A DNA stretch of 64,000 nt from an uncultured Candidatus Saccharibacteria bacterium (GCA_964348525.1 CAYGCY010000002.1:9726-73725); one strand, 5' to 3'. Counted from the first letter of the stretch, positions 3,937-63,616 are shown. Notes: a model not told the origin generated them from the sequence alone. Numbers and translations: made by a program.

Positions 3937-3941
3937 CAAAG

Positions 3942-3970
3942 CCGGCGCACCCCCGTTCAGGGCGCGCCGG
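3942..3970. terminator. GC-rich hairpin between rplI and a small convergent ORF
   Basis: ccggcgc...gcgccgg 7-bp stem with a 15-nt loop. Weak T-run. Confidence 0.4.
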
Positions 3971-3989
3971 TAAATTTGAGCCTCTAGTG

Positions 3990-4226
3990 CTACCCATGTT
4001 TTTCAACGTGAGAATCGTAGAGTTCTCGTTTGATACGTGCATGACAGCGCGGGCACTCTGTGCAACATGGCGCTACGTGTATGACCTCTTGGGAGCCAAC
4101 ATGACAGGCACAGTTGCAGAGTTCGTCATTTGTGACGACCAGTGCATGGTTTATGTGCCCACATGCATAGCATGTAAACGATGTGCCCAAATCACGTCCG
4201 CACCTCTCACAGCGATTGTGCAACAT
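3990..4226 (-). CDS. Small Cys-rich zinc-ribbon-like protein (GC-rich cassette). Start chosen at the internal ATG with a GGAGGG SD.
   Basis: Four CxxC-type pairs (CERCGRD, CYACGH, CNCACH, CCTECPRCH). SD GGAGGG 7 nt upstream of ATG at 4224-4226. The region is about 50% GC against an AT-rich backbone. An antisense 87-aa ORF on the plus strand is the alternative. Confidence 0.4.
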   Translation of the reverse strand: MLHNRCERCGRDLGTSFTCYACGHINHALVVTNDELCNCACHVGSQEVIHVAPCCTECPRCHARIKRELYDSHVEKHG

Positions 4227-4273
4227 GGCAAAACCCTCCATAGCGGGTAATTTCTATATCAAATTTATCACAC

Positions 4274-4552
4274 CTACTGAGGAATTACATCAAAAACTTT
4301 CTTTGATTTTGATTCACCATTGAAATGAGTTTTACGGGTTGTTCGAAGCTCTAGTTTTCCGGAGGCTAGTGCAAAAAGAGTTCTGTCAGAGCCCATACCT
4401 ACATTTTGTCCTGGGAGAATGTGGGTGCCTCTTTGACGTACCAAAATAGAGCCAGTTTTAACAACGTCTCCTGGGGTTACCTTGATTCCTAGGTATTTAG
4501 GATTTGAATCTCGACCGTTTTTTGTTGTACCTGCGGCTTTCTTATGTGCCAT
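4274..4552 (-). CDS. rpmA: Ribosomal protein L27
   Basis: [24 protein letters not shown], a canonical L27 N-terminus. Confidence 0.9.
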
Positions 4553-4574
4553 ATTGTTTCTATAATATTAGGCA

Positions 4575-4754
4575 ATGAGTATAACCCAGCTTAAGAACTG
4601 GCGCAAGGCTTTAGAGGCCCTTGTTTCTTCAAATAAGAGATTTGTTTATACGGTAGCGTTTTTAGGCTTATCTTTGATTCTAGGCTCATTTTTACTCATA
4701 AATACTATCCTAGAAAGGCCAGATGTCGTTATATACAGAGACCAGCAAGGATAA
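4575..4754 (+). CDS. Possible small membrane peptide (59 aa) upstream of the FtsX-like permease
   Basis: MSITQLKNWRKALEALVSSNKRFVYTVAFLGLSLILGSFLLINTILERPDVVIYRDQQG, with one predicted TM helix. Below the ORF-track size cut-off. No motif support. Confidence 0.2.
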   Translation: MSITQLKNWRKALEALVSSNKRFVYTVAFLGLSLILGSFLLINTILERPDVVIYRDQQG

Positions 4755-4772
4755 ATGATATAAACTTAAAAA

Positions 4773-6765: not shown

Positions 6766-8282
6766 AAGGAGTACTAAATAAAATAAAATATTTCATATTG
6801 AGTCACAAAAAGATTGCTATTTCCGTAGCGCTGGTGGTTTTCTTGGTAGTAATATTTGTAAGCCAAAACGGCAAAAAAGAGCTCACTTACACTGTGGAAA
6901 GGGGTAGTTTGAGCCTTATTATTAAGGCCACCGGCAATTTGAAGGCTTCGGAAAACGCTTCACTTTCATTTGGAAGAAGTGGCACGGTAACGAAAATCAA
7001 TTTTCAGGCGGGAGACAAAGTGAAGGCAGGGGAGGAGATATCCAGTTTGAATTTGAGTTCCTTGTACGCAGATTTAGCCAAATCAAAAAATGCTCTAGCC
7101 GAAACTAGTGTGTCTTCAGTAAAAACCATAAGAGAAACGGGGGATCAGTATTCTATAGAATTAAAGAAAGCCGTGTCTTCTATAACTGACGCTTATAACA
7201 AAGAAGACAACGCCATTAGAAATGATTTGGACAAATATTTTAGAGACCCCAATAAGGCGGGCGCGTATTTTCAATTACCGGGCTACCAGACCTCTTTTGA
7301 TGGGGTAGATTTAACGGGGGTAAATTCAAAGAGGTATCAAGTAGAGCTTGGTTTGGTAAATTTGGAAAAAATAATAAGAGATATTTCTCTCTCAACATCT
7401 CCAAATGATGCATCCAAAATAGACGAAGCCTTTTCTGTGGCTAGAAAAGAATTATCAAAAGCCATCAATCTTCTCGAAATCGTTGCTTCTTTAATAAATG
7501 GCCTGCAAAATTCAAGTTCTTCTGTAGATGCTACTCTCGAGGGGCATAAGAATAATGTTGCGGAGATAAGGGTGACTCTCGCTACCGCCTTGGTCAGTTT
7601 AGACTCTGCAATAGCTACGTGGAATACAGCTCCAAAATATTCAAATGCAGGTTCTTTAGAGAATAGTTTAGTAGCGGAATCACAACTCGAACAAAAAAAG
7701 GCAGACGTACAATCGATAGAAGCGCAAATAAGAGATTCTATTATTTTTAGTCCCTTGAATGGTTTAATTACAAAGAAAAACATTTCAATAGGAGAATCGG
7801 CAACTGCTGGGAAGGAAGCTTTCTTCGTTTTGGCCGACAAAGATTATTACATTGAAGCTAATGTGTCAGAAGTAAATATAGGAAAGGTAGCAATAGGAAA
7901 TACTGTAGACATTACGCTAGACGCCTATCCAGACAAGAAATTTTCAGGAAAAATCACTTATATAGAAAGTTCAGAAACCATTGTAGACGGTGTGGTGAAT
8001 TACAAAATAAAAGTATTTGGAAATATTCCTTCAAGCATTACGAGAAGCGGTTTGACGGCCAATCTGTCCATCCAAGGCGACTCGAGACAAAATGTTCTCA
8101 AGATTCCACTGTATGCTCTTACTAAAGAAGAAAGTGGTTATAAAGCTATAATTAAAAATGGTACCGGTGCTAAAAAAGCGTCTGTAGAAACTGGTTTTAG
8201 AGCTTCAGATGGCTTTGTTGAAGTGCTTTCGGGTTTGAAAGCGGGGGATATCGTGGTTTTGCCGGAGGTAGTGACAAAATAG
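6762..8282 (+). CDS. HlyD-family periplasmic adaptor / membrane fusion protein
   Basis: N-terminal TM, long coiled-coil, C-terminal beta-barrel-like region. Translationally coupled to the upstream ABC ATPase. Confidence 0.7.
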   Translation: MKGVLNKIKYFILSHKKIAISVALVVFLVVIFVSQNGKKELTYTVERGSLSLIIKATGNLKASENASLSFGRSGTVTKINFQAGDKVKAGEEISSLNLSSLYADLAKSKNALAETSVSSVKTIRETGDQYSIELKKAVSSITDAYNKEDNAIRNDLDKYFRDPNKAGAYFQLPGYQTSFDGVDLTGVNSKRYQVELGLVNLEKIIRDISLSTSPNDASKIDEAFSVARKELSKAINLLEIVASLINGLQNSSSSVDATLEGHKNNVAEIRVTLATALVSLDSAIATWNTAPKYSNAGSLENSLVAESQLEQKKADVQSIEAQIRDSIIFSPLNGLITKKNISIGESATAGKEAFFVLADKDYYIEANVSEVNIGKVAIGNTVDITLDAYPDKKFSGKITYIESSETIVDGVVNYKIKVFGNIPSSITRSGLTANLSIQGDSRQNVLKIPLYALTKEESGYKAIIKNGTGAKKASVETGFRASDGFVEVLSGLKAGDIVVLPEVVTK

Positions 8283-8545
8283 TATTTTTATTGTATAAAT
8301 AATGAGCAATAATATGGCTCTGTTTAGCCGTATTAACGCTTTTTTATAAAAAAAGTCCTTGACTTTGGGTAATGAAAATGCTACCATATTAATAACCCAG
8401 TAGAGCTGGGATTTTTATTTGGCATCGCATACGGGCGCCCGAAGTGGGCTACAGAAGTGAATGAAACAGCTAATGCCAATTACCAGTTAATTCAAGGCTT
8501 ATTTTATCTTTAACAACTCTCGGTTTACTCGCAGCTAATGTAAGT

Positions 8546-8950
8546 ATGAGTGCGGCCGCAATGGTCCCAACAGACCACGCGACTATCCCTCAAAAACCGT
8601 CCATAGTCGTCACAAAGAATTTGCCAAAAGCAAAGACAATCAAGGAACAAGTGGAAGCCTATTTCGCAGACATCCCAATGCTCGTAAGAGTAGCGGAGTG
8701 TGAATCTCATTTTCGTCAGTACGATGAAAATGGCGAAGTATTCCGCGGTATGGTTCCTCAAGATGTCGGTGTGATGCAGATCAATGAGAGATATTGGGGT
8801 GAAAATGCCGAGAAACTCGGTATAAATCTCTACACTACTCAAGGAAACATGCAATACGCTAGATATCTTTATGAAAAACAAGGACTTCGCCCATGGAAGG
8901 CATCGTCAGCTTGTTGGACTAAGGGTACGGAACTCGCTATAGCTAAGTAA
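8546..8950 (+). CDS. Lysozyme-like / transglycosylase-like domain protein
   Basis: AECESHF...VGVMQINERYWG resembles the catalytic Glu region of the lytic-transglycosylase/Rpf superfamily. Intermediate GC. Confidence 0.45.
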   Translation: MSAAAMVPTDHATIPQKPSIVVTKNLPKAKTIKEQVEAYFADIPMLVRVAECESHFRQYDENGEVFRGMVPQDVGVMQINERYWGENAEKLGINLYTTQGNMQYARYLYEKQGLRPWKASSACWTKGTELAIAK

Positions 8951-8957
8951 CCTACAA

Positions 8958-8990
8958 ACAAAAACCCGCGCTTAGCGCGGGTTTTTGTTT
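8958..8990. terminator. Bidirectional rho-independent terminator
   Basis: aaaaacccgcgcttagcgcgggtttttgttt: perfect GC stem flanked by A- and T-runs, between convergent genes. Confidence 0.85.
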
Positions 8991-9444
8991 AGACAAATTT
9001 CCCTGTAGTTTTCTTACTCTCTAAAAAGGTAGTTGCGAATATGAGAGTAGTGGTAAGGGCTGAGAATATACAATATAGACACCATGCCTCAATGACAAAT
9101 GCTTGAATATATGTGAAGCGTAAGGATGCAAGAAAACCTATGCCAGAAATTATTTGAAGCGCCCTCAAAATTTTGTGTGAAGAAACATTGTTTTCATCTT
9201 TCTCAAAAAACAAAATAGAGAAGGCAAAAAGTAGTAAGTAATAAACGAGGCCCATATAAGCGACGGGTATACCGAACATATAAGCGTATTCGCTAGTGGT
9301 TACTATGTCGCACCTGAAGCCCGTAACACAGGGTGGTATGACTTTACGGAAGTGCTCTATGGACAAATATAAAGAGTCCAAAAACCCTAAAATCGCCAAA
9401 ACAAAAATTATTATTTGATACTTACTGTGTTTTAGTATTTGCAT
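8989..9444 (-). CDS. Vitamin K epoxide reductase (VKOR)-family membrane protein
   Basis: Four TM helices, loop Cys pair (PPCVTGFRC) and CLYC active-site motif. Co-oriented with a DsbA-like gene. Confidence 0.7.
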   Translation of the reverse strand: MQILKHSKYQIIIFVLAILGFLDSLYLSIEHFRKVIPPCVTGFRCDIVTTSEYAYMFGIPVAYMGLVYYLLLFAFSILFFEKDENNVSSHKILRALQIISGIGFLASLRFTYIQAFVIEAWCLYCIFSALTTTLIFATTFLESKKTTGKFV

Positions 9445-10156
9445 TTGTTAATTCATTTTCTATAACTTTTTGGAACTCTGTTCCATTTTGGGGTAGGGGA
9501 ATCAGTTTGCCATTTATAAACAAGGACGGAGTGCCTGACAATTTCATGGCTCGTGCCTCATCTCGGCCACCTTTTATTTTGTCTTCTAGAGAGGCCAATT
9601 TCAAATCTCCGTTAAATTTGTCTATATTTAAACCAAGTTTAGTTGCGTAACCTAAAAACACAGCTGTGGGGTCGGTTGCATTAACCCACTCGCTTTGATT
9701 TGCGTATAGTAGGTCGAGCATTTCAAAAAATTTGCCCTGCATTCCAGAGGCCTCCGCTACTTTTGCAGATGCCAATGCTCTCGGGTGTATTTCAATAAGA
9801 GGGAAGTGACGGAAGACTATGGCTACTTCACCTTTGTATATTTCGACAGCTTGCTTGAGTAATGCAGAGTATGAGGCGCAGGCAGGGCATTGAAAATCAC
9901 CGTATTCGACTATAACAACTTTTGCATTTCTATTGCCGTACCAATGATCATTTTCTGTAACAGGGTATTTTTGCAAATCAGTAGCATCACCTGTCACAGA
10001 AGAGCTTTTACGAGAAGATAGACCTATAACAATAAGAGAAAGCGCTAGTAAACCAACTAAACCCCACAATAATTTATTTTTCATACTCGTGTAGTATAAC
10101 TTTTTGAATAAACGAAAACCACCTCGGTTTTGAGGTGGTTTATTTCTATTATCCAA
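9422..10156 (-). CDS. DsbA-like thiol:disulfide oxidoreductase (thioredoxin fold)
   Basis: N-terminal TM/signal, CPAC active site (FQCPACASY). Confidence 0.8.
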   Translation of the reverse strand: MDNRNKPPQNRGGFRLFKKLYYTSMKNKLLWGLVGLLALSLIVIGLSSRKSSSVTGDATDLQKYPVTENDHWYGNRNAKVVIVEYGDFQCPACASYSALLKQAVEIYKGEVAIVFRHFPLIEIHPRALASAKVAEASGMQGKFFEMLDLLYANQSEWVNATDPTAVFLGYATKLGLNIDKFNGDLKLASLEDKIKGGRDEARAMKLSGTPSLFINGKLIPLPQNGTEFQKVIENELTNANTKTQ

Positions 10157-10427
10157 ATTCTTTCATTTTCTTGGATAGGGAAACACATCCATCTGCCCAG
10201 ATTTTTTCCGAACTCTCGTCGAGCAGAGTATCAAGGGGCAGGGCGAATTGCTCTTCCATATTGATACCTCTCTTTGCGCATTCGTTTTCGCGAATTTGTC
10301 TTACAAGATCGCGAAGAAACTGCCTTGCTATTTTGGGTTTGGTGCCTCTAAATAGCATTTCATCGGCAGCTAACGACATGTCCAAACCTTCAAGTGTTTC
10401 TCCCAATTCTGCATAACTAATGGACAC
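10149..10427 (-). CDS. Hypothetical acidic protein, first gene of the DsbA-VKOR operon
   Basis: 92 aa, no TM. Overlaps the dsbA start by 8 nt. Confidence 0.4.
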   Translation of the reverse strand: MSISYAELGETLEGLDMSLAADEMLFRGTKPKIARQFLRDLVRQIRENECAKRGINMEEQFALPLDTLLDESSEKIWADGCVSLSKKMKEFG

Positions 10428-11201
10428 GGGCCACTCCTTACTAGGGTAGGTGATAATGATGCTTCTCCGGCGAATATATTATTTATTTTATTGCTTAAAG
10501 CAAGGAATTTTTCTACGCCCACTTAATTGTCTAGTTTAATTTAATGGAAAATAAATTTAGTAAAGCTTTGTTTATCGGCCTTTATTTTATAGGGGGATAG
10601 GGCTTTCTTAGGTTAGATTAAGGTCGCACAATATATCTTTTAGACCTACACCATCTATACAAAAGGGCCAAAGGACTCCCCCATAGCTTTTATTAAAAAA
10701 ACAGGCACTCCGGTATTTAAATTTAGAATTAATTTTATTTGTCAAAAATATTTTTAATATTATTCCCCACGTTTATACTTCACTAAAAATAATAAAACAA
10801 AAAATAATCTCTATTTTTATCTATCTTCTTTAGAGTCCATTCTGTCTGAACCCCTTTGGGGTCTTTATGAGCCCTAAAAGGCCTTAAAGAGGTATATGAC
10901 CCTATGCCAGGATGGGCCAAAGAATGCTCTTTGGAGCTTTTTAAGGAATTCTTCGTTGAGTCAATATTCTTCTACCCTTCTGGAACTTTTTATTTTTTAA
11001 AGCCTGTTTTGCATTGTTGGTAACAAACACAAAGCGAGCTTTGGACATTGAATTGTTTTTGTTTTTATTTATTGCCATATCTTTATTTTACCCATCTAAG
11101 AGCCCTTCCCACCATGAGCCTGTGTTATTAAGTATTAGGTACATCGAGCCGTAAAACGGCAAAAGGATGAAAAATAAAATTTTCTTGTGCATATACTTAC
11201 A

Positions 11202-11453
11202 CTAATTGGTCGGCGGTTTGACCACTCCAGCGGATTGGGTCACTACTTCTAGAAAAAATGGTTTTACATGGTCTGTCCACCAGCTCCACATGATAGAAAA
11301 GAAGTGGCCCACGGTATAAGGGAGTCCATTCGTTTTTAGGCTGTCAATAACGTCAAAATTGTAGGAATATTTGAGAATCAAATAAAGAACGACTAGAAGC
11401 AGAAGAAACGGTATGAATCCCCTTTCGTTTTTAAGATTTAAGTTTTTTAACAT
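11202..11453 (-). CDS. Hypothetical small membrane protein
   Basis: 83 aa with one TM helix. Last gene of the long minus-strand operon. Confidence 0.4.
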   Translation of the reverse strand: MLKNLNLKNERGFIPFLLLLVVLYLILKYSYNFDVIDSLKTNGLPYTVGHFFSIMWSWWTDHVKPFFLEVVTQSAGVVKPPTN

Positions 11454-11467
11454 ACTTTAATACTAAA

Positions 11468-36721: not shown

Positions 36722-36751
36722 TTGACAAACGTTTAACTAGTGTTATATAAT
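36722..36751 (+). promoter_or_regulatory. Near-consensus sigma70-type promoter (TTGACA, about 16-18 nt, TATATAAT)
   Basis: ttgaca at 36722-36727, tatataat at 36744-36751, upstream of a small membrane ORF. Confidence 0.5.
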
Positions 36752-36781: not shown

Positions 36782-37057
36782 ATGCCAATCGTTCTAATCT
36801 TGCTCGGTGCATTGTTTTTCGTTGTCGGCTCCAATGAGATCGTTGGTGGCTCTCAGAACCCAATGGACCTCATTGTGGTAGCTGTCGGAATCTGTTTCTG
36901 GGCAATCGGCCTTCTCATCCACGTCATCACAATAGTCGTGGAAAAACAGACGAACCGACAGATCAAGGCTGTATTCCGCATCTCGAACCCCCTTTTCTCT
37001 GAGGTGGAGCTCGAGGAGTTGTGGAATGCAAGAAAGGAAAAGTTCCTCAACCCGTAA
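36782..37057 (+). CDS. Small two-TM membrane protein (GC-rich cassette)
   Basis: MPIVLILLGALFFVV.... Start moved to the ATG downstream of the promoter -10 box. About 50% GC with G/C-ending codons. Followed by a strong terminator. Confidence 0.45.
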   Translation: MPIVLILLGALFFVVGSNEIVGGSQNPMDLIVVAVGICFWAIGLLIHVITIVVEKQTNRQIKAVFRISNPLFSEVELEELWNARKEKFLNP

Positions 37058-37058
37058 C

Positions 37059-37096
37059 CCGCCCGCAGAGCCCCCGCGCTCTCGCGGGCGGTTCTG
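37059..37096. terminator. GC-rich bidirectional terminator hairpin
   Basis: ccgcccgcagagcccccgcgctctcgcgggcgg followed by a T-rich run. Confidence 0.7.
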
Positions 37097-43575: not shown

Positions 43576-43695
43576 ATGGCCCGAAAGGTAATTTGCCGCA
43601 GGTGTCACCACGGCTCGCTTTTCTGCCGTTGTGCCCGCTTCAATCCGAAACCCTTAGTCCGCCGCCCTCGCAAGAGAGCGAGAAAAGCGAACTAG
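43576..43695 (+). CDS. Small basic zinc-ribbon-like peptide (39 aa), GC-rich cassette
   Basis: Perfect SD AGGAGGTGA 8-9 nt upstream. MARKVICRRCHHGSLFCRCARFNPKPLVRRPRKRARKAN. Preferred over the overlapping 79-aa frame in the ORF track. Confidence 0.35.
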   Translation: MARKVICRRCHHGSLFCRCARFNPKPLVRRPRKRARKAN

Positions 43696-43708
43696 CAGTG
43701 AGCTTACA

Positions 43709-43746
43709 GGGCACAAGCAAGAAATTGCGTGTGTCCTTTGTTTTAT
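43709..43746 (+). terminator. Hairpin + T-run terminator for the small peptide gene
   Basis: gggcacaagcaagaaattgcgtgtgtcc followed by tttgttttat. Confidence 0.45.
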
Positions 43747-46564: not shown

Positions 46565-46604
46565 CACAAAGGGCTGGTTGCGGTTCAAAACCGCAACCAG
46601 CCCT
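46565..46604 (-). terminator. Perfect hairpin terminator after the P-loop kinase gene
   Basis: gggctggttgcggttcaaaaccgcaaccagccc with T-run on the minus strand. Confidence 0.75.
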
Positions 46605-46610
46605 TATTGG

Positions 46611-47153
46611 TCAGCCCTTAGCTAGCCTCAACACTTCGACCACCAGAGAGTCGATGCTTGAACCGTCTTCGTTGTACACGACAGTATGATTCTTCGTACC
46701 TTCCGGAAATTCCTCGAATGCTTCCGCACACATGTTGTGAATCTTCGTGGCGATTTCCGGTGTATGGAGAAGATGTCCTTCCCGTGGAGCCGAAAGACGC
46801 GCTACAGCAGTTTCCGGTGCCGAACGCACCTCAACCCACTGCACATCAACTTTCTGCTCGGCACAGAAAGCTTCCATCTGTGAGCGGACTGAGTGATATG
46901 GATAAACTTCATCCATGATCACAATCGAAGCCCCACTATCAAACTTGTAAAGGGCTTCTTTCAGTGCGTCCTGACAATAAAGCGACCTCACTTCTGGGGG
47001 GTCGACTTCGTCAGTCACCTTTTTTGGGTCAGCCCTGATTCGTTTGTGATGGTCAACATCAACGCGCGTTGCCCACCCCAACTCGTGCATCCGCTTACAA
47101 ATCGTCGTTTTGCCTGAGCCAGGCAAACCGGCCAGCAGTATGAGCGTGTTCAC
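46611..47153 (-). CDS. P-loop kinase / AAA_33-like NTPase (GC-rich island)
   Basis: Walker A GLPGSGKTT, Walker B IVIMDEV. GTG start with AAGGAGA SD. About 52% GC. Confidence 0.6.
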   Translation of the reverse strand: MNTLILLAGLPGSGKTTICKRMHELGWATRVDVDHHKRIRADPKKVTDEVDPPEVRSLYCQDALKEALYKFDSGASIVIMDEVYPYHSVRSQMEAFCAEQKVDVQWVEVRSAPETAVARLSAPREGHLLHTPEIATKIHNMCAEAFEEFPEGTKNHTVVYNEDGSSIDSLVVEVLRLAKG

Positions 47154-47253
47154 CTGTATCTCCTTGCCAAGGTAACAAAAATGGCCTCCAACCGAAGACC
47201 AATCTAGTTATGAACTTACCATATATATAAAGCTTAATCAATTCACTTCAAAT

Positions 47254-47290
47254 TAAAAAAAGGGCGTAACTATTGCAATAGTTACGCCCT
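47254..47290 (-). terminator. Hairpin terminator downstream of tRNA-Tyr
   Basis: gggcgtaactattgcaatagttacgccc with T-run on the minus strand. Confidence 0.75.
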
Positions 47291-47316
47291 CTGACCCAGC
47301 CAACAACCAAAACGAC

Positions 47317-47402
47317 TGGTGGGTAGGAGAGGATTCGAACCTCTGTAGGCTCACGCCAACTGATTTACAGTCAGTCCCCTTTAACCGCTCGGGCACCTAC
47401 CC
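47317..47402 (-). tRNA. tRNA-Tyr (GTA), type II with long variable arm, CCA encoded
   Basis: GGGTAGGTGCCCGAGCGGTTAAAGGGGACTGACTGTAAATCAGT...GGTTCGAATCCTCTCCTACCCACCA. Perfect 7-bp acceptor stem. Starts 5 nt after the tyrS stop. Confidence 0.85.
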
Positions 47403-47406
47403 CTAG

Positions 47407-48675
47407 TTATTCAACAACAACTTTGTGGTAAGTCTTCTTCCCTTTTCTCAAAAGAACCGTGGAGTCGTCCGTCACAAACTGACTCAACGAGACTCCGGTA
47501 TCCGTTACGGCCTTGTTGCCGATGTAAATACCGCCGGCTCTCACGAGCTTTGCCGCTTCTGTTTTTGACGTGGAGAAGCCCACCCTAACGAGAACTTCGG
47601 TGAGCTTCAACCCGTCTATTTCAGACTTGGTGAAAGTGGTACTCGGAACATGCGACAGGTCCCCACCTTCAGCACCAAACAACCCTCTTGATGAAGCTTG
47701 GGCTTTTTTCGCCTCTTCTTCACCGTGAGTGATTTTGGTTGCCTCAAAAGCGAGGGCCTCCTTTGCTCCTCGCAAATGGTGTCCGCCTTGTTCGCAGAGC
47801 TTGGCGATTTCTTCCAATGGCAGAAAGGTGAAGAGTTTCAGGAACTTTTCCACATCTCTGTCATCGGAATTAATCCAGTACTGGTAGTACTCGAAGGGCG
47901 AAGTCTTCGCCGCATCAAGCCAAATCGCACCAGACTCCGTCTTGCCCATCTTCTGTCCACGCGCAGTGGTGAGAAGCGGGAACGTCAAGCCGTGGGAATT
48001 TCCTTGCGTCACTTTCTTGATGAGGTCGATGCCCGCAAGGATGTTGCTCCACTGGTCGTCACCACCCATTTGCACCGTACACCCGTGCTTTTCGTACAAG
48101 ACGAGGAAATCATACGCCTGAAGCAACTGGTAGTTGAACTCAATGAAGGACAAGCCTTCATCTCTGTCCAGTCTCATCCTGTATGCTTCAGCGCGAATCA
48201 TCTCGTTCACCTTGAAGAATCGCCCGACGTCCCTCAAAAACTCGATGTAGTTGAGGGGTAACAACCAGTCCGCATTGTTCAAAAACAATCCAACGCCGTC
48301 ACCGAAAGACAAGTACCTCTTGAGTTGCTCCAAAAGAAGACGACCGTTTTTCGCGATGTCTTCTTTTGAAAGCATTTGTCTCATCTGCGTCTTCCCGCTC
48401 GGATCCCCAATCATGGTGGTTCCACCACCAATGATTGCAATGGGCATGTGACCAGCCCTTTGCAGATGGGTCATTGCCATAATCGGCAACAGATGTCCAA
48501 CGTGCATGCTGTCTGCAGTTGGATCGAAGCCGACATAGAACGTGACCTTCCCCGTGTCTAACAGGGATTCAAGCGACAAGGTCTTCACCAGCGTGTGCCG
48601 GTCAAAAACCTCGACAGGCGCTGTCTCCTGCTTGATGAAACCCCTGCCCTTCAGTTCTTCGTATACGTGTGACAT
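47407..48675 (-). CDS. tyrS: Tyrosyl-tRNA synthetase (compositionally atypical, about 52% GC)
   Basis: HIGH-type motif (HVGH) and KMGKT (KMSKS-type), C-terminal S4-like domain. GC far above the other aaRS genes here. Confidence 0.9.
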   Translation of the reverse strand: MSHVYEELKGRGFIKQETAPVEVFDRHTLVKTLSLESLLDTGKVTFYVGFDPTADSMHVGHLLPIMAMTHLQRAGHMPIAIIGGGTTMIGDPSGKTQMRQMLSKEDIAKNGRLLLEQLKRYLSFGDGVGLFLNNADWLLPLNYIEFLRDVGRFFKVNEMIRAEAYRMRLDRDEGLSFIEFNYQLLQAYDFLVLYEKHGCTVQMGGDDQWSNILAGIDLIKKVTQGNSHGLTFPLLTTARGQKMGKTESGAIWLDAAKTSPFEYYQYWINSDDRDVEKFLKLFTFLPLEEIAKLCEQGGHHLRGAKEALAFEATKITHGEEEAKKAQASSRGLFGAEGGDLSHVPSTTFTKSEIDGLKLTEVLVRVGFSTSKTEAAKLVRAGGIYIGNKAVTDTGVSLSQFVTDDSTVLLRKGKKTYHKVVVE

Positions 48676-48843
48676 TTGACTATCCTCTTATAGCTGGTTA
48701 ATGAACTATAGTCTTTGTGACTAGCACACTAACTCTTTATTCAGTAAATCACGAAATCTGCACTAAAGCAACCATTTTATTTGACAATTGTTTATAAATT
48801 TGGCAATATCCCAGTTTAGAAACCCTTACACGGAGCAACTCAA

Positions 48844-49020
48844 TGTTTCGCTATATGATGTTCTACCTAGCCGGCCACAAGGACAGAAAGGCATACCAGC
48901 CCGAATTTGATGCCCGTGACGATACCGAAGCACTCCGAATTGCCACGGATAAACTGGCTGATGTGCGTTTGGCTGGAGGCGACCCTTCGGACTTCAGACT
49001 TTTCAAGGAAATCAAGTAAC
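48844..49020 (+). CDS. Small hypothetical protein (58 aa), GC-rich
   Basis: SD ACGGAG. MFRYMMFYLAGHKDRKAYQPEFDARDDTEALRIATDKLADVRLAGGDPSDFRLFKEIK. Followed by terminator 49029-49056. Confidence 0.35.
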
Positions 49021-49028
49021 TAGCACAG

Positions 49029-49056
49029 CAAGCCGCCCCAAAGGGGCGGCTTTCAC
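49029..49056 (+). terminator. Hairpin terminator
   Basis: agccgccccaaaggggcggcttt. Confidence 0.6.
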
Positions 49057-49128
49057 ATTCAAAAATATGAACGATTGAAAAAAAATTTAAAATATTGTAG
49101 AACTAATGCCCCTCTACCGGAGAACGAC

Positions 49129-49386
49129 ATGGGAGTTACGCAGTACCCTCGTGAGCTTGCGGTTGCGATGTCGAAGCCCAAACATCTGCAGTTCTTTCAT
49201 TCTTTGTCTATCGTAGAGAGACAAAGAATTCGTGGCTTGGCAGGAGGAGTACACAAGTGCGGGTGCAGTTACTTTCACGAGCAACTCGGCACCGCCTGCG
49301 AGCACGACATTGCCACATTTCTGGCACTACCCATCACGAAGCGCAAGACCATCCTGCGTTCGTCCGCCCACCACCTCAGAACTTGA
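49129..49386 (+). CDS. Small hypothetical Cys/His-containing protein (85 aa), GC-rich
   Basis: SD CGGAGAA. MGVTQYPRELAVAMSKPKHLQ...HKCGCSYFHEQLGTACEHD. Start chosen at the internal Met with SD. Confidence 0.35.
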   Translation: MGVTQYPRELAVAMSKPKHLQFFHSLSIVERQRIRGLAGGVHKCGCSYFHEQLGTACEHDIATFLALPITKRKTILRSSAHHLRT

Positions 49387-49402
49387 GGTGGTGGTTTTTT
49401 TA
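49368..49402 (+). terminator. Hairpin + T8 terminator
   Basis: cccaccacctcagaacttgaggtggtggttttttta. Confidence 0.8.
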
Positions 49403-50108: not shown

Positions 50109-50366
50109 ATGGTTAGAAAAGCTAATCCAGCACTATTGAAGCCTATGAATCTGTCTGCAGAACTTGAGGCTGTAGTGGGAAAAGGTCCTATGTCTCGAGG
50201 TTCAGTAGTAAAAGGTATGTGGGACTACATCAAGAAACACAACCTTCAGAATCCTTCAAACAAGAGAAACATCTTGGCTGATGAGAAACTAAAGCCTTTG
50301 TTCGGAGGCAAAAGCGAAGTGACTATGTTTGAGATGACTAAACTCGTTTCAGGCCACTTGAGCTAA
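50109..50366 (+). CDS. SWIB/MDM2-domain protein
   Basis: LSAELEAVVGKGPMSRGSVVKGMWDYIKKHNLQNPSNKRNILADEKLKPLFGG. Confidence 0.8.
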   Translation: MVRKANPALLKPMNLSAELEAVVGKGPMSRGSVVKGMWDYIKKHNLQNPSNKRNILADEKLKPLFGGKSEVTMFEMTKLVSGHLS

Positions 50367-50447: not shown

Positions 50448-50518
50448 GTGGACCTATCGGGAATCGCACCCGAGCTTCGTCAATGCGAATGACGCGTCGT
50501 GCTACTAGACTATAGGCC
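50448..50518 (-). tRNA. tRNA-Ala-like (anticodon CGC), non-canonical D- and T-loops
   Basis: Cloverleaf with G3:U70, A73, anticodon loop UUCGCAU. 3-bp D-stem without G18/G19. T-loop UGCGAUU (G at position 55). Confidence 0.45.
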
Positions 50519-50530
50519 CATTTCTCTTCG

Positions 50531-50601
50531 GTGGACTCACGGGGAATCGGACCCCGACCTCATCCATGCCATGGATGCGTAATACCATTTTACTATGAGC
50601 C
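50531..50601 (-). tRNA. tRNA-Ala (GGC)
   Basis: G3:U70, A73, anticodon loop AUGGCAU. D-loop has GG. T-loop UCCGAUU. Confidence 0.55.
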
Positions 50602-50673
50602 CGTCGTACTGGTATTTTACGGAAAATAACCACAGCTTCAAATAAGATTATTTTTAGGATAAGATGTTGTCTT

Positions 50674-50821
50674 CGGACCTTTAGCTTAGTTGTAGCGTCT
50701 CGTGAAAAGCAACCAGCTGTAGGGTTTCGTAAAATGTTGCTCATGCACGGGCCTTGGCTTAGTTGTAGCGTCTCGTGAAAAGCAACTGACTTCAGAGTTT
50801 TGTAAAATATTGTTCGTGTAC
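50674..50821 (+). repeat. Two tandem about 74-nt degenerate tRNA-like units sharing the 5' 28 nt of the downstream tRNA-Ala
   Basis: Units at 50674-50747 and 50748-50821 begin GG(A/G)CCTT(T)(A/G)GCTTAGTTGTAGCGTCTCGTG like the tRNA-Ala 5' half, but do not fold into a cloverleaf. Confidence 0.4.
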
Positions 50822-50897
50822 GGGCCCTTAGCTTAGCTGGTAGAGCGCCTCATTTGCAATGAGGAGGTCAGCGGTTCGAATCCGCTAGGGTCCACCA
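50822..50897 (+). tRNA. tRNA-Ala (TGC), CCA encoded
   Basis: GGGCCCTTAGCTTAGCTGGTAGAGCGCCTCATTTGCAATGAGGAGGTCAGCGGTTCGAATCCGCTAGGGTCCACCA. G3:U70, A73. Confidence 0.85.
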
Positions 50898-50962: not shown

Positions 50963-51223
50963 ATGGGAAAATTCATAGCAGGTGTCTTACTTGCTGGAGG
51001 TTTGTTGTTGGTTGGAACAGTCTGGGCACAAAGCCAGACCGACTCGCTCAACAGCAACCCAGCGAGGGAATACTACTTCTTGGCCACCAGTCGTAGCCAC
51101 TTCAATGGGATTAGAACTGCTGTCGTAGTGGGGCCATTTCTAAGCTTGAGCGAATGCTCAGAAATGGGCGCAATCACCACAGGAAAAGGGTTCTCAGCAA
51201 CCAAGTGCTGGATTGGGCGCTAG
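50963..51223 (+). CDS. Small secreted protein (signal peptide, 2 Cys), GC-rich
   Basis: SD GAGGTG. MGKFIAGVLLAGGLLLVGTVWAQ signal peptide. Followed by terminator 51237-51276. Confidence 0.4.
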   Translation: MGKFIAGVLLAGGLLLVGTVWAQSQTDSLNSNPAREYYFLATSRSHFNGIRTAVVVGPFLSLSECSEMGAITTGKGFSATKCWIGR

Positions 51224-51236: not shown

Positions 51237-51276
51237 AAAACGACACAGTTATCTCTAGCTGTGTCGTTTTCTTATT
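51237..51276. terminator. Perfect hairpin bidirectional terminator
   Basis: aaaacgacacagttatctctagctgtgtcgttttcttattt. Confidence 0.8.
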
Positions 51277-53566: not shown

Positions 53567-53830
53567 ATGAGTATCTTTGGGCACGACGCTTTGGAGCCTG
53601 CTCCCGCAAGCCGGTCTGGTGGGCCAACACCTCCGGAGGTGTTTGAGGGTCCAAGCGGACTTATCGGCTCGAGTATGGCAGACCTTTGTGGACAAGACAC
53701 AGGCGCTCCTCCAGCACACACGGGGGCACCTTGCCACGACTGGAGTGCCCCGCCACAGACCAAGGCTGGTTGTGATTGCCACGGCATTCCCAATTGCCCA
53801 GCTTCACACCCACCCGAATTCGGATGCTGA
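53567..53830 (+). CDS. Small Cys/Pro/His-rich protein (87 aa), GC-rich
   Basis: SD GGAGG 4 nt upstream. C-terminal CHDWSAPPQTKAGCDCHGIPNCPASHPPEFGC. Strong terminator follows. Confidence 0.4.
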   Translation: MSIFGHDALEPAPASRSGGPTPPEVFEGPSGLIGSSMADLCGQDTGAPPAHTGAPCHDWSAPPQTKAGCDCHGIPNCPASHPPEFGC

Positions 53831-53836
53831 CACCTA

Positions 53837-53877
53837 CCCCGCGAGATGTATCCACATCTCGCGGGGTTTTCTTTTTC
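53837..53877 (+). terminator. Strong rho-independent terminator
   Basis: ccccgcgagatgtatccacatctcgcggggttttcttttt. Confidence 0.85.
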
Positions 53878-53923: not shown

Positions 53924-54124
53924 ATGAGTATCAGTGGTGAGGAAATGGAAGTAATGGGCAGAGCCTCGATACTTCTGGACAAGCTCAAGAAAAGGGGCTT
54001 GGACCCTGAAGAATTTGACGAACTGCGTCGGCTTCAATCCATGTGCCCACACAATTCACGGCCTGTGGACTTCATGCACAACGGAGAAGATTGCGAAGCT
54101 TGTGGCATGCACCTCGGTACATAA
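53924..54124 (+). CDS. Small Cys-containing protein (66 aa), GC-rich
   Basis: SD AAGGAG. MSISGEEMEVMGRASILLDKLKKRGLDPEEFDELRRLQSMCPHNSRPVDFMHNGEDCEACGMHLGT. Confidence 0.4.
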   Translation: MSISGEEMEVMGRASILLDKLKKRGLDPEEFDELRRLQSMCPHNSRPVDFMHNGEDCEACGMHLGT

Positions 54125-54150
54125 AGGGGCCCCTGTGGCCCCTTTTGTTT
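54123..54150. terminator. Bidirectional terminator hairpin
   Basis: aaaggggcccctgtggccccttttgttt. Confidence 0.75.
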
Positions 54151-56827: not shown

Positions 56828-56856
56828 TTGACAAACACATGATTTAGTGTGAATAT
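56828..56856 (+). promoter_or_regulatory. Possible promoter (TTGACA -35, weak -10)
   Basis: ttgaca at 56828-56833. gaatat/tatagc about 17-19 nt downstream. Confidence 0.3.
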
Positions 56857-56892
56857 AGCTGTAGTTGTACAAACAAGACCTATGGAGGCCAT

Positions 56893-57246
56893 ATGGCTTT
56901 TGGATTAAGACAGATCACGAAGGGGTCCTGCCGTGCGATTGACCGAAGAATGTTCCCCCACCTGAAGGGCGGTCGTCTTATTGTTAAGGTAGTTCCAAAC
57001 GATGAGTTACCTGCCGAATTGCGTGGTCTGTTAAAGAATGGTGGACTCTTACTGATGGAAGAGGCTCGCATCACGCCAGATTGGGTAGAGTTCATCAAAA
57101 ATAACCCCGAAAGAGCATATATTGACTACGAGAAACGCAAGATACGACACGTGGTTCTGGCGTGTGGGCCAACCCATGGTTCGGCGATATCATTTTTGCT
57201 AGACTTGGGTCTTACAGATGCCCACCTTGAGCCCATTATTGACTGA
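56893..57246 (+). CDS. Hypothetical protein (117 aa), GC-rich cassette
   Basis: SD GGAGG 4 nt upstream. No recognised motif. Terminator follows. Confidence 0.45.
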   Translation: MAFGLRQITKGSCRAIDRRMFPHLKGGRLIVKVVPNDELPAELRGLLKNGGLLLMEEARITPDWVEFIKNNPERAYIDYEKRKIRHVVLACGPTHGSAISFLLDLGLTDAHLEPIID

Positions 57247-57257
57247 GTAAGCTTAGG

Positions 57258-57290
57258 ACCCCGCACCACAAGGTTGCGGGGTTTTGTTTA
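57258..57290 (+). terminator. Hairpin + T-run terminator
   Basis: accccgcaccacaaggttgcggggttttgttt. Confidence 0.8.
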
Positions 57291-57369: not shown

Positions 57370-57531
57370 GTGCTTACAGTGGCAAGTGTTCTTTTTTGGA
57401 TTGGAGTTCTTTTCATCGTGATAAACGTCATGGTGACCTTTAGCAATTCGAAGGACACCAAGAACTCCTCGATTTCACTCCCATTCATGTTTCTGCTTGC
57501 TGCGGCGGTAGCCAAGTTCCTGAACATGTAG
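57370..57531 (+). CDS. Small two-TM peptide (53 aa), GTG start
   Basis: SD AGGAGAAG. VLTVASVLFWIGVLFIVINVMVTF...LPFMFLLAAAVAKFLNM. Terminator follows. Confidence 0.3.
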   Translation: MLTVASVLFWIGVLFIVINVMVTFSNSKDTKNSSISLPFMFLLAAAVAKFLNM

Positions 57532-57537
57532 ACAACA

Positions 57538-57575
57538 CCCACGAACTCCCACCGAGTATCGTGGGTTTTCGTTTA
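57538..57575. terminator. Hairpin + T-run terminator (also abuts the uvrB stop)
   Basis: cccacgaactcccaccgagtatcgtgggttttcgttt. Confidence 0.7.
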
Positions 57576-59630: not shown

Positions 59631-59648
59631 TCGAATGTATATTACACA

Positions 59649-61146: not shown

Positions 61147-61302
61147 ATGAGACCTTTCTGTTTAGCAATGGCCTTGGCTATGGCCTTTTCAGTAGTTGTG
61201 TTCACCGACCCACTTAAATCAACTGGAACACTTGCTGGTGGCCTCGCTGGCATAATTTATGCTGTGCTCTATGTTGGTATAGCCATCAAAGAAAAGAAGT
61301 AG
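61147..61302 (+). CDS. Small two-TM peptide (51 aa)
   Basis: MRPFCLAMALAMAFSVVVFTDPLKSTGTLAGGLAGIIYAVLYVGIAIKEKK, with own promoter, SD and terminator. Confidence 0.35.
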   Translation: MRPFCLAMALAMAFSVVVFTDPLKSTGTLAGGLAGIIYAVLYVGIAIKEKK

Positions 61303-61318
61303 CCCAAACCGCACACAT

Positions 61319-61362
61319 GAGCGCCACGTGATACATCACGTGGCGCTTTTCGTTTGTTTTTT
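61319..61362 (+). terminator. Hairpin + long T-run terminator
   Basis: agcgccacgtgatacatcacgtggcgcttttcgtttgtttttt. Confidence 0.8.
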
Positions 61363-61377
61363 CTCCTACCGCTTCCA

Positions 61378-61449: not shown

Positions 61450-61455
61450 ACTGTC

Positions 61456-62022
61456 TTATTTTACTTTCACCAATTCCACCTCAAACAAAAGTGTTGAGTT
61501 TGGAGGAATGCTTCCTGCTTGTTGGTCACCATACCCAAGCTTTGGAGGAATAACTATCTTTCTTACAGAACCTTCCTTCATTCCAGTCACGCCTATATCA
61601 AATCCCTGTATTACTTTTCCCGAACCAATAGTGAAAACTAACGGCTCACCGCGCACTCTCGATGAGTCAAATTTGGTGCCATTTGTCAGCACTCCCTCAT
61701 AGTGCACAGCAACGGTATCACCGGCTCGTGCTTCCCTACCTGTGCCTACCTTTACATCTATAATACCTACCTGATTATCTGGAATGTTTTGAATGTTTTC
61801 TATATTGTCTGTGCTCATATTTGGTTGGTTACTTTCTTCTGTAGTTGGTAATGCGAAATTAATGCTTGAAGTATTCTGCGTGGCATCACTTACAGGCTGT
61901 TTTGCCTGAATCTCTGAAAACCTGCTAACTATAGGAGACCAAACTCCCTGCCAAAAAACATAACCAATAACTACTAAAGAAACTGATATAGCAACCCAAG
62001 TGCGTGAATGTATATTTTGCAT
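61456..62022 (-). CDS. FKBP-type peptidyl-prolyl cis-trans isomerase, membrane-anchored
   Basis: N-terminal TM. FKBP domain VAVHYEGVLTNGTKFDSS...LLFEVELVKV. Confidence 0.85.
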   Translation of the reverse strand: MQNIHSRTWVAISVSLVVIGYVFWQGVWSPIVSRFSEIQAKQPVSDATQNTSSINFALPTTEESNQPNMSTDNIENIQNIPDNQVGIIDVKVGTGREARAGDTVAVHYEGVLTNGTKFDSSRVRGEPLVFTIGSGKVIQGFDIGVTGMKEGSVRKIVIPPKLGYGDQQAGSIPPNSTLLFEVELVKVK

Positions 62023-62106
62023 GTGAATATTCTAACCCAAGACTTTTTATTTTCTAATGTGGCTGTGAATTGCTCTACCTTCACTTTCACATATATACTA
62101 TGAAGA

Positions 62107-62823
62107 ATGAAAGACGACACAAAAGATTTGCTTACTCTGAAAGAGATGCATGAAAACTCTCAGGCGAGAGTGGAAGAGATTTCAAAAGAATTTACAGATG
62201 GGTTTAAGTTTTTGGAACATTTTGGAAGAAGCGTGAGTTTTTTCGGTTCTGCTCGCACTAAAGAGAATTTTGTTGATTATCAAACCGCAAGAAATCTGGC
62301 TAGCAAAATAGCCAAGGATTTGGGGTATGCGGTAATTACAGGGGGAGGCCCCGGAATAATGGAGGCGGCTAATAGGGGTGCAAAAGAAGCTGGAGGAAAA
62401 TCAGTTGGCCTTACCATAAGACTTCCACAAGCTCAGACTACCAATCCTTATCTAACTCACCACTTAGATTTTTATTACTTTTTTGCAAGAAAAGTGTGTC
62501 TCACTTTTGCTTCTGAGGCTTTCGTATTTTTCCCAGGAGGCTACGGAACACTCGACGAGCTTTTTGAAGTGCTAACACTCATACAATCTAGAAAAATTGA
62601 AGGCGTTCCTGTATTTTTGATAGGAAGCGACTACTGGAAAGACATCGACGCTCATATAAAAAGCTCCCTGCTAGGAAAACAAATGATTGATGCGGAGGAT
62701 GTTTCCATATACACAATCACGGATGACTTGGACGAAATAGTGAGAACCATAAGAGGGTTAAAGGTGCGTGAGTGGCTTCCTTTTGACCACAACGGAGGGT
62801 TGCCAAATGTGAGTCAGGAATAA
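62107..62823 (+). CDS. LOG-family protein (cytokinin riboside 5'-monophosphate phosphoribohydrolase-like)
   Basis: GGGPGIMEAANRGA and PGGYGTLDELFEVL motifs. Confidence 0.85.
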   Translation: MKDDTKDLLTLKEMHENSQARVEEISKEFTDGFKFLEHFGRSVSFFGSARTKENFVDYQTARNLASKIAKDLGYAVITGGGPGIMEAANRGAKEAGGKSVGLTIRLPQAQTTNPYLTHHLDFYYFFARKVCLTFASEAFVFFPGGYGTLDELFEVLTLIQSRKIEGVPVFLIGSDYWKDIDAHIKSSLLGKQMIDAEDVSIYTITDDLDEIVRTIRGLKVREWLPFDHNGGLPNVSQE

Positions 62824-62834
62824 ACAGACAAATG

Positions 62835-62870
62835 AAATGGCTGGTCGCGCGTAGCGCGACCAGCCATTTT
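62835..62870. terminator. Perfect hairpin bidirectional terminator
   Basis: aaatggctggtcgcgcgtagcgcgaccagccatttt. Confidence 0.85.
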
Positions 62871-62876
62871 CCCTTC

Positions 62877-63500
62877 TTACCCTACAAAGACATCGTCATG
62901 CCCCATCAAGGTGGTGAGGCCCGTGGGCATCTTCGGAGTGGCGGAACGATCACCGACACGACGGACAGTGAACCCCGTCCTGTGCCAAGTGATAATTCTT
63001 CCCTCGTCAGAATGTGAGCCTGCAGGCTTCACGGTAATCGAATCACCGATTCGCATGATTTGCAGAATTTCCTCCACCTCGAACTCGTGCCCGTTAATCT
63101 TCTGACGAGCAAGACCTTTGAGGAGAGGCCTCTGCACTTTCTCCGAGCGCCTGATTGGCGCGTGTCGGAAAAACGAGCCGCCCTTCTTGTCATTCAAAGG
63201 CACAATCCCGTTTGGGTTGGCACTCGAAACGAGGAGAAGGGCTCGACGTTCATGCATTTCAGGAACTTCGAGAACAACCGTGTGGTCGTCGAGCTTCCTT
63301 GCAGAAGCCTCAATGACCATGTCGTTTTCCATCGTGGGAGAACTCTCGGTGCTCACAACAAGCCTCGCCGGCTGATCGCCAGGCTTCACGCTGTAGTCAC
63401 CAAGCACTCGCTCGAAGCGGGTTACCTTAATGCCGTACACCACTTCCCCGACCTCGTGACCAGCTGGGTCATGCTTGAGGCAAAAACTAAAACAGAGCAA
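62877..63500 (-). CDS. Hypothetical protein, GC-rich, start uncertain (TTG at 63500 or internal Met at 63332)
   Basis: 207-aa ORF with protein-like composition (D/E/K/G/V-rich). The opposite-strand 158-aa ORF looks like an antisense artefact. No motif recognised. Confidence 0.35.
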   Translation of the reverse strand: MLCFSFCLKHDPAGHEVGEVVYGIKVTRFERVLGDYSVKPGDQPARLVVSTESSPTMENDMVIEASARKLDDHTVVLEVPEMHERRALLLVSSANPNGIVPLNDKKGGSFFRHAPIRRSEKVQRPLLKGLARQKINGHEFEVEEILQIMRIGDSITVKPAGSHSDEGRIITWHRTGFTVRRVGDRSATPKMPTGLTTLMGHDDVFVG

Positions 63501-63616
63501 ACCTTACTCCTTTTCCTGTGGGTTTTGAAGGATTGAAATGTTCAATCCATTTGGGAGTATAACATAATTTTAAAGTTATGTAAATTAGATAATTTTATGT
63601 TATATTAGAGCCATAT

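Follow-up and report, generated by a model that had tools for sequence, protein, structure and literature searches.

Nine GC-rich segments lie between AT-rich core genes in a 64,000-nucleotide stretch of an uncultured Candidatus Saccharibacteria bacterium (GCA_964348525.1 CAYGCY010000002.1:9726-73725; "the window" hereafter means this whole stretch), and together they hold about 14 open reading frames (ORFs) and one tRNA. We favour, with roughly even confidence, the interpretation that these segments form an accessory-gene compartment of a Paceibacteria (Candidate Phyla Radiation) chromosome, in which the units that can be traced in siblings are old GC-rich residents and the others turn over. 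Judged by sequence comparison, the composition of the traceable units is a maintained equilibrium, with a GC content at third codon positions (GC3) of about 0.5-0.6 against 0.2-0.35. The best-supported classification of the units is as islet- or moron-like accessory units, and what is new about them is their unusual persistence and their reversed compositional contrast.

Composition was measured with 53 core ORFs as the backbone reference and the 14 ORFs of the nine flagged segments as the cassette set; C1-C9 are unit labels, and L-numbers denote sibling or relative loci. The window has a GC content of 40.0%, and all nine segments are elevated, reaching 0.47-0.63 in 150-bp windows. Backbone GC3 averages 0.327 (standard deviation 0.035, range 0.18-0.43), whereas 13 of the 14 cassette ORFs have values of 0.49-0.65 (z 4.7-9.3; Mann-Whitney p 6e-9 between the sets, per-ORF binomial p 1.6e-3 to 1e-35). 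A GC3 of at least 0.49 was found in only 0.4% of the 60-codon backbone chunks, and the GC content of four-fold sites is 0.52 in the cassettes and 0.34 in the backbone. The exception is C8, which has a GC3 of 0.40 (z 2.2) and is no codon-usage outlier. C8 aside, the computed GC, GC3 and four-fold values bear out the first-pass annotation, made by reading the sequence, which had reported nine GC-rich segments with deviant codons. In C6d the GC content is concentrated at codon positions 1 and 2 (0.65/0.66), with a GC3 of 0.50. At the boundaries GC changes in steps, the 20 core-gene codons that face a cassette having a GC3 of about 0.30, which argues against a regional conversion gradient. Two general causes were considered and rejected: regional GC-biased conversion, because the flanking genes show zero GC3 gradient, and transcription-linked deamination, because the four-fold sites of the backbone are strand-symmetric (A 0.33, T 0.34, C 0.17, G 0.16).

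The units and their signals, including predicted Shine-Dalgarno (SD) motifs, are listed below with protein lengths in amino acids (aa).

C1, 3931-4241, minus strand: between rplI and rpmA; ORF 3990-4226, 78 aa, Cys/His-rich; SD motif GGAGGG; terminator hairpin 3941-3970 with T-run; GC3 0.49, z 4.8.
C2, 36722-37095, plus strand: between mnmA and mltG/yceG; promoter TTGACA (36722-36727), 18 nt, TATAAT (36746-36751); ORF 36782-37057, 91 aa, with two hydrophobic helices by eye; GC-rich hairpin at about 37058-37092; GC3 0.59 (in-frame ORF).
C3, 43560-43746, plus strand: between the gene for a 176-aa membrane protein and ychF; SD motif AAGGAGGTG; ORF 43576-43695, 39 aa, basic, with CxxC..CxC; hairpin at about 43708-43739; GC3 0.65, z 9.3.
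C4a, 46569-47153, minus strand: P-loop kinase of the AAA_33 family (Pfam PF13671, E 2.5e-10), ORF 46611-47153, 180 aa; terminator with a perfect 17-bp stem, 46569-46605; GC3 0.54.
C4b, 47259-48675, minus strand: tyrosyl-tRNA synthetase (TyrRS; Pfam PF00579, E 4.6e-84), 47407-48675, 422 aa, GC3 0.62, z 8.5; tRNA-Tyr(GTA) at 47317-47402, 4 nt past the TyrRS stop (ARAGORN and Rfam); terminator 47259-47292.
C4c, 48772-49071, plus strand: TTGACA (48781-48786), 17 nt, CAATAT; ORF 48843-49019, 58 aa; hairpin 49028-49050; GC3 0.56.
C4d, 49129-49394, plus strand: ORF 49129-49386, 85 aa from an internal ATG with a GGAG SD motif, Cys/His-containing; terminator 49368-49394; GC3 0.56.
C5, 50963-51270, plus strand: between tRNA-Ala(UGC) and ddl; ORF 50963-51223, 86 aa, with a signal-peptide-like N-terminus; terminator 51237-51270; GC3 0.56, z 6.8.
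C6d, 53567-53867, plus strand: divergent from uvrC; ORF 53567-53830, 87 aa, low-complexity and Pro/Gly/Ala-rich with a Cys-rich C-terminus; terminator 53836-53867.
C6a, 53924-54145, plus strand: ORF 53924-54124, 66 aa, with C..CxxC; terminator 54123-54145, convergently common to uvrA.
C7a, 56828-57290, plus strand: between uvrA and uvrB; promoter-like TTGACA, 17 nt, GAATAT; ORF 56893-57246, 117 aa; hairpin at about 57258-57290; GC3 0.49.
C7b, 57370-57565, plus strand: ORF 57370-57531, 53 aa, hydrophobic, without a gene call in the source record; terminator 57548-57565; GC3 0.61.
C8, 61078-61348, plus strand: between tgt and the FKBP gene; TTGACA, 17 nt, TATAAA; ORF 61147-61302, a 51-aa membrane peptide; terminator 61319-61348.
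C9, 62835-63584, minus strand: between a LOG-family gene and a 130-aa/DoxX pair; TTTACA, 17 nt, TG-TATACT (63556-63584); ORF 62877-63500, 207 aa (188 aa if an internal Met is the start); terminator 62835-62869 with a 16-bp stem; GC3 0.61, z 8.2.

Pfam identified the genes at the junctions as L9/L27, MnmA/YceG, 176-aa/YchF, UvrC/UvrA, UvrA/UvrB and TGT/FKBP, confirming the exact placement between conserved genes that had been claimed; the core neighbours include rplI, rpmA, mnmA, uvrABC, tgt and ddl. Ten of the 14 units are oriented against the neighbouring core genes. An SD-like motif of the GGAG type lies 5-10 nt 5' of the start in 13 of the 14 ORFs (C2 is the exception), and a strong GC-rich hairpin directly follows the stop in 12 of them. 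In the remaining two, the hairpin of C4d overlaps its own stop, and TyrRS continues into tRNA-Tyr, which has its own hairpin. The hairpins are mutually unrelated in sequence and are simple terminators with T-runs. Between 46 and 64 kb, 32 terminator-like sites were observed, compared with 18.1 ± 3.7 expected. Generic promoter-like sites showed no enrichment (29 observed, 29.8 expected); near-consensus -35/-10 pairs are readable at C2, C4c, C7a, C8 and C9. The self-contained anatomy proposed for the segments, with a promoter or SD motif, an ORF and a terminator, is right. The description "mini-cassettes" does not suit 46565-49402, which is a 2.8-kb block of TyrRS, tRNA-Tyr, the kinase and two small units. 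Taken together, the units would be autonomous transcription units of a single gene, or at most two or three genes, lodged at operon boundaries.

To place the units among relatives, sibling loci were obtained via protein searches and contig look-ups, of which the TyrRS search gave graded siblings; the sibling DNA spans the window from about 43.5 kb onward. All relatives found with UvrA belong to the Patescibacteria (Paceibacteria/Parcubacteria, Zambryskibacteria- or Taylorbacteria-like), which places the organism among the uncultured, ultra-small bacteria of the Candidate Phyla Radiation; UvrA scans of GTDB and JGI gave a best match of 86% (L038, 4.1 kb) and otherwise no sibling closer than 76%. 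The gene order SWIB, flavodoxin-like, [small genes], TyrRS, tRNA-Tyr, kinase, InositolP (inositol monophosphatase), EamA, YchF is repeated in L161-L164; L165-L167 also have its core of TyrRS, kinase, InositolP and EamA. Kinase orthologues adjoin TyrRS in L164, L161-L163, L165, L166 and L167. Differences between L161 and L162 upstream of TyrRS and in the kinase proved to be a matter of start-codon calls, not of content. TyrRS and tRNA-Tyr(GTA) have a common terminator and are apparently co-transcribed; this linkage is kept in L161, L162, L164, L165 and L166 (TyrRS identity 73-96%), and linkage and GC-richness are alike in these five sibling loci. In every AT-rich sibling the GC3 of TyrRS and the kinase is 0.47-0.62, against 0.24-0.37 in the adjoining core; in L167, whose genome has 53% GC, the block is not distinct in GC. 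The resident GC-rich set presumably includes the cell's TyrRS and tRNA-Tyr. A different type of TyrRS (36-39% identical) occurs near uvrA in other Paceibacteria.

The TyrRS block has diverged together with its surroundings. Third-position divergence at identical residues was 0.16/0.10 for TyrRS/kinase against L164, with 0.15-0.23 in the flanks, and 0.46 for the block against L161, with 0.45-0.46 in the flanks. The TyrRS distance matrix tracks that of the flanks (rho 0.79-0.80). Rough polarisation of the changes gave no excess from GC to AT (28 against 38), the outgroup being nearly saturated.

Among the units, C9 is the clearest case: it has an orthologue in L172 with 53% identity, located in the equivalent slot, where a 131-aa gene and the LOG gene flank it, and with a GC3 of 0.57 against 0.16-0.32 around it. 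The third positions of conserved residues differ at 0.64 between the two orthologues, and their GC/AT states are independent (31/30/27/17), indicating that the high GC3 was reached separately in each lineage and is not a shared relic. C6d occupies the equivalent slot of L038 (72% by tBLASTN, 77% by codon alignment) and of L169 (42-48%). L038, with UvrA at 86%, carries both small genes at uvrC/uvrA, its C6a orthologue having 65% identity, and C6d and C6a in siblings are clearly GC-richer than the backbone; the TyrRS block, C4d and C9 match their GC-richness in the window. C4d has a 95% homologue in the near-identical L164 and a weak match only in L161-L163. The C6 and C9 slots are occupied in all siblings examined. 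Because these genes are GC-rich despite saturated synonymous sites in the deeper comparisons, their composition appears to be maintained and is not a fading foreign signature.

Other slots turn over. The 300-bp C4c unit (promoter, 58-aa ORF and hairpin) is absent from L164, although the flanks are about 97% identical; L164 has 23 unrelated or remnant nucleotides in its place, with no target duplication. The window and L164 have a 49-bp spacer between EamA and YchF, whereas L161 and L162 carry 1.6 kb of GC-rich DNA there, comprising two genes of 394 aa (GC3 0.47) and 55 aa (GC3 0.54); a target duplication was sought at this insert and none was found. The C3 slot of L161 contains unrelated DNA with a GC content of 0.48. 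At uvrB/uvrA, L169 has an unrelated 202-aa gene (GC3 0.61) and L170 has 135 bp without a called gene. In L169 a histidine kinase and a sigma factor replace the TyrRS block between the flavodoxin-like gene and ychF, and slots without called genes still have a GC content of 0.48-0.55. The C8 slot (tgt/FKBP) of L170 encodes an unrelated 63-aa membrane peptide, and the occupants of the L170 slots showed no homology to C6d, C7a or C8. Presence among relatives is thus sporadic for C4c, C3, C7 and the EamA/YchF insert and constant, in the same position, for the TyrRS block, C4d, C6d, C6a and C9.

This turnover is what would be expected if foreign or selfish moron- or islet-like modules had been imported recently and repeatedly, their GC content being the unameliorated signature of the donors. 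The step boundaries of the deviant composition, the autonomous promoter/terminator anatomy, the presence or absence of C4c between siblings of about 97% identity and the EamA/YchF insert confined to L161/L162 all agree with such import, as does the published finding that Patescibacteria have many islands and transferred genes, with exchange mostly within the phylum (PMC12455944). A probable integrated element was also seen in L166, where positions 7027-9656 encode a large serine recombinase (Resolvase + Recombinase + Zn_ribbon_recom) for which the stored gene calls have no entry. Directly adjoining the recombinase, just upstream of TyrRS, are an ORF with a GC3 of 0.83 and a tRNA-Tyr(GTA)-like gene, which is the second one there and divergent. 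This recombinase beside GC-rich cargo implies that integrative elements visit the TyrRS neighbourhood in the wider group. However, all units with a counterpart in a more distant sibling keep their slot and their GC-richness, past synonymous saturation in the deeper comparisons, and five units already appear to predate species splits. No integrase, recombinase or transposase domain was found in the cassette ORFs or elsewhere in the window, which also has no repeat families shared by or flanking the segments and no att-like sites; tRNA-Tyr and tRNA-Ala adjoin C4 and C5 without repeats. The cassette proteins had no PHROG matches, searches of IMG/VR for relatives of C9, C7a and C6d came up empty, and PADLOC gave no match at E <= 0.01 for ten cassette proteins. 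Donors are likewise invisible, most of the proteins having no relative among 1.84e9 representatives. We therefore consider recent import an unlikely explanation of the segments as a whole. Of the acquisition of foreign or selfish modules proposed earlier, the weak sense stands, in that slots differ between siblings, but the traceable units are resident and nothing selfish was found. TyrRS-tRNA-Tyr-kinase, C6d, C6a and C9 are present with the same composition in relatives, an outcome that the first-pass annotation had itself named as refuting acquisition. Overall, the acquisition reading is only partly supported. The alternative offered at the time, a lineage-specific class of small proteins with distinct codon usage, fits the traceable units better.

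GC-richness could also be renewed rather than retained, if homologous recombination in the flanks kept re-delivering slot-bound genes from GC-richer relatives and so refreshed their composition. The gene order is common to Paceibacteria of 33-58% GC, syntenic close relatives are GC-rich throughout (L167 53%, L170 46%), and orphans regress to intermediate GC in AT-rich and GC-rich genomes alike. There is also slight incongruence, the EamA of L161 being equally close to L166 and to the window while TyrRS is not. Nevertheless, no GC-rich recombination tracts extend into the core genes on either side, the TyrRS distances broadly agree with those of the flanks, and the synonymous distance between the window and L164 is equal for block and backbone. 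Re-import would have to reach the same slot each time and leave the flanks unmarked, and the genes at the L170 junctions lack homology to C6d, C7a and C8. Continuing import from relatives is in our view quite unlikely.

A stricter version of residence would have a vertically inherited set in AT-rich Paceibacteria, including a TyrRS-tRNA-Tyr operon and lineage-specific small proteins, hold a GC3 of about 0.55-0.6 indefinitely while its neighbours stay near 0.3. We regard this gene-by-gene equilibrium as a tentative possibility. If true, it would imply that these particular genes are under selection for their GC content or mRNA features, or that repair or conversion is biased within the limits of a transcription unit, and it would contradict the expected amelioration of resident DNA.

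Relatives of the small proteins were sought by an exhaustive HMMER search, in which 12 of them were joined as one query against 1.84e9 cluster representatives; a null result from a word-indexed protein search was discounted, because the joined query missed identical self entries, and HMMER was used instead. The search gave only 27 matches in total, self clusters included. C1 matched about 15 small Cys/His proteins. Two relatives were found for C9 (53% and 44%) and two for C6d, one for C6a (P0266, 49%; the 66-aa form is a cluster representative) and one for C4d (P0265, 85 aa, 49%), and C2 gave its self match and one partial relative (57%). For C3, C4c, C5, C7a, C7b and C8 nothing was found outside their own 90% clusters among these representatives; the closest known sequences are a 95% cluster mate for C5 and a 93% cluster mate for C7a. 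Pfam, PHROGs, PADLOC and NCBIfam gave zero matches for the small ORFs. The C9 family alignment has 65 invariant columns; the C9 model is all-beta (pLDDT 65), and a fold search gave no match. The C1 family, which comprises 14 small proteins, is unannotated and has the invariant motif C-x-C-x-C-H-x7/8-H-x3-C-C-x2-C-P-x-C-x3-I-x7-H; the AF2 model of C1 has a pLDDT of 79, and a PDB search gave only non-significant zinc-finger matches. One C1 relative adjoins recR and is not GC-rich there. Between the window and L038, 38 of 65 differences in C6d and 35 of 66 in C6a fall at third codon positions, the ORFs are intact in both, and all indels inside them are multiples of three. By this evidence, the units that have it encode real, fast-evolving and lineage-restricted proteins, one type of which is predicted to bind zinc. 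Membrane and secreted types are suggested by the predicted features of others.

These coding patterns bear on two further explanations. Chance ORFs could have arisen de novo in GC-rich, stop-poor spacers, some now being real proteins and others merely annotated. This would agree with the overlapping ORFs in many frames of the GC-rich segments, the six ORFs without a relative beyond their own 90% clusters, the low-complexity, Pro/Gly/Ala-rich C6d, and the non-homologous fillers of sibling slots, which are GC-rich and in some cases geneless (L169 gaps 0.48-0.55; L161 0.48). However, it leaves the GC-richness of the spacers unexplained, as spacers within operons have a GC content of 0.30; TyrRS, the kinase, C9 and C1 clearly belong to old families, and each ORF has a well-placed SD motif and terminator. 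As a general account we consider de novo origin very improbable. The segments might otherwise be artefacts, either of chimeric assembly or of structured RNA genes with accidental ORFs, given that GC-rich patches in AT-rich genomes are often RNA genes and that four tRNAs lie in or adjoin two segments (tRNA-Tyr at C4, tRNA-Ala at C5). Rfam found those four tRNAs and nothing else, over the whole window at the gathering threshold and over 42.7-64 kb at E <= 1, and the substitutions in C6 are codon-periodic. The junctions recur in independent assemblies, among them L171, L164 and cluster members derived from Logan, NCBI and ENA. The L171 sequence, which comes from a different sample, matches the window at 100% identity along 1,730 bp spanning C9 and both flanks, and L164, L038, L169 and L172 repeat the GC mosaic. 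Chimerism, which had earlier been called the less likely explanation, is thereby excluded at the junctions tested, and an artefactual or non-coding origin overall is scarcely credible.

The accessory compartment that we favour was compared with known systems. Phage morons are independent transcription units inserted among conserved genes in prophages, lambdoid ones included (PMC3594210). The units resemble morons in having, as read from the DNA, a single ORF, their own promoter and terminator, and a deviant composition, and in that the flanking genes are adjacent in a relative, as in L164 for C4c and conversely for EamA/YchF. They differ in lying between housekeeping operons of a bacterial chromosome, without phage genes or PHROG matches; several have kept their position across deep divergence, a tRNA synthetase and its tRNA are part of one block, and the C6 and C9 slots are filled in every sibling examined. 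The moron concept, of independent transcription units between conserved prophage genes, reportedly goes back to Juhala et al. in 2000. Genomic islands and islets (PMC12455944) share with the units an atypical composition, variable presence, a richness in hypothetical proteins and tRNA genes, here beside two segments. However, islands exceed 10 kb and the units span 0.2-2.8 kb, without an integrase, direct repeat or mobility gene, and the units are GC-richer than the host with a composition that persists rather than ameliorating. Integron gene cassettes are also small single-ORF units that differ between related genomes, but the units here are scattered, have their own promoters and lack attC, IntI and an array.

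The contrast with the backbone also runs against the usual rule that core genes exceed the remainder of the genome in GC, to which exceptions are mostly intracellular bacteria (PMC5303225). As in that work, accessory and orphan genes deviate from core GC and vary more, but the sign is reversed here and in other AT-rich Paceibacteria and flips back in GC-rich relatives. Large GC differences are known inside one Parcubacteria genus (PMC11188291). We surveyed about 130 Paceibacteria loci with AT-rich backbones, considering gaps of 150-1,500 bp between large genes. A quarter of the gaps exceeded the GC of the backbone by more than 5 points, compared with 1-2% of the gaps in GC-rich backbones, where a third were AT-richer. 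In the AT-rich loci, GC3 exceeded that of the backbone by more than 0.12 in 28% of orphan ORFs and in 6% of family members, and in GC-rich loci the orphan GC3 shift was reversed. Accessory DNA in the group thus tends to intermediate GC whatever the composition of the host. An adenylate-kinase-like P-loop family of about 208 aa lies about 1.5-4 kb from uvrA in L004, L012, L030, L039/L101, L044 and L064; it is GC3-rich in five of six AT-rich carrier loci, with a mean excess of 0.20, and echoes the AAA_33 kinase of the window.

A mechanism for the accessory compartment can be outlined. Illegitimate recombination, with no dedicated machinery, would bring new units into operon boundaries. Their source may be a Paceibacteria-wide accessory pool of intermediate GC, and some may possibly have arisen de novo in spacers that are GC-rich and poor in stops. 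Some units would then be kept for long periods.

Several points weigh against old residence and a maintained composition. The argument from C9 and TyrRS presupposes single ancient acquisitions, and the saturated outgroup means that the absence of amelioration was weakly tested. The deamination-skew test was negative, with no known mechanism of gene-scale resolution. The GC excess of C6d is mostly a matter of amino-acid composition (codon positions 1/2), and in L038 C6 shows only a small contrast in four-fold GC (0.36 against 0.29, n=72). In the sibling DNA, which begins at about 43.5 kb, C1 and C2 were not traced in any sibling. Relatives of less than 93% identity were not found for C5, C7a or C7b, and none at all for C3 or C4c, so that these five and C2 are putative genes of uncertain age. 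Spurious ORFs, which are longer in GC-rich DNA, can inflate the orphan-ORF survey.

Some further features of the region were noted. Three tRNA-Ala isoacceptors (CGC, GGC and UGC) lie at 50448-50897, and L167 has the same cluster of three tRNAs; a 73-nt tandem duplication at 50681-50826, 84% identical, enters the 5' end of tRNA-Ala(UGC). Positions 50109-50366 encode an 85-aa SWIB/MDM2-domain protein that is 84-89% conserved in siblings. To our knowledge, the SWIB/MDM2 domain is uncommon in bacteria. The region 10157-11467 comprises 1.3 kb without a long ORF, has a GC content of 0.365, unlike the GC-rich slots, and gave no Rfam match at the gathering threshold. Beyond window position 64000, the contig was followed in L168, which is the reverse complement, from window position 44149 on, of the window's own metagenome contig (k141_2260231, 157,812 bp, of ENA assembly ERZ27247837). 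A 683-aa Band_7/SPFH gene at L168 37-2088 has a GC3 of 0.72, the highest seen on the contig, and the gene order around it is the same in the independent assembly L171.

Compositional oddity is routinely taken as a sign of recent horizontal gene transfer (HGT), and island predictors rely on that. If the pattern described here is general, composition-based HGT estimates for Patescibacteria would be inflated, and a factor other than genome-wide mutation bias would set GC for each transcription unit. The units further point to a reservoir of small proteins restricted to the lineage, including a new Cys/His-rich, predicted zinc-binding family and candidate membrane or secreted peptides. The operon-boundary slots provide a tractable system for gene gain, gene loss and possibly gene birth in reduced genomes.

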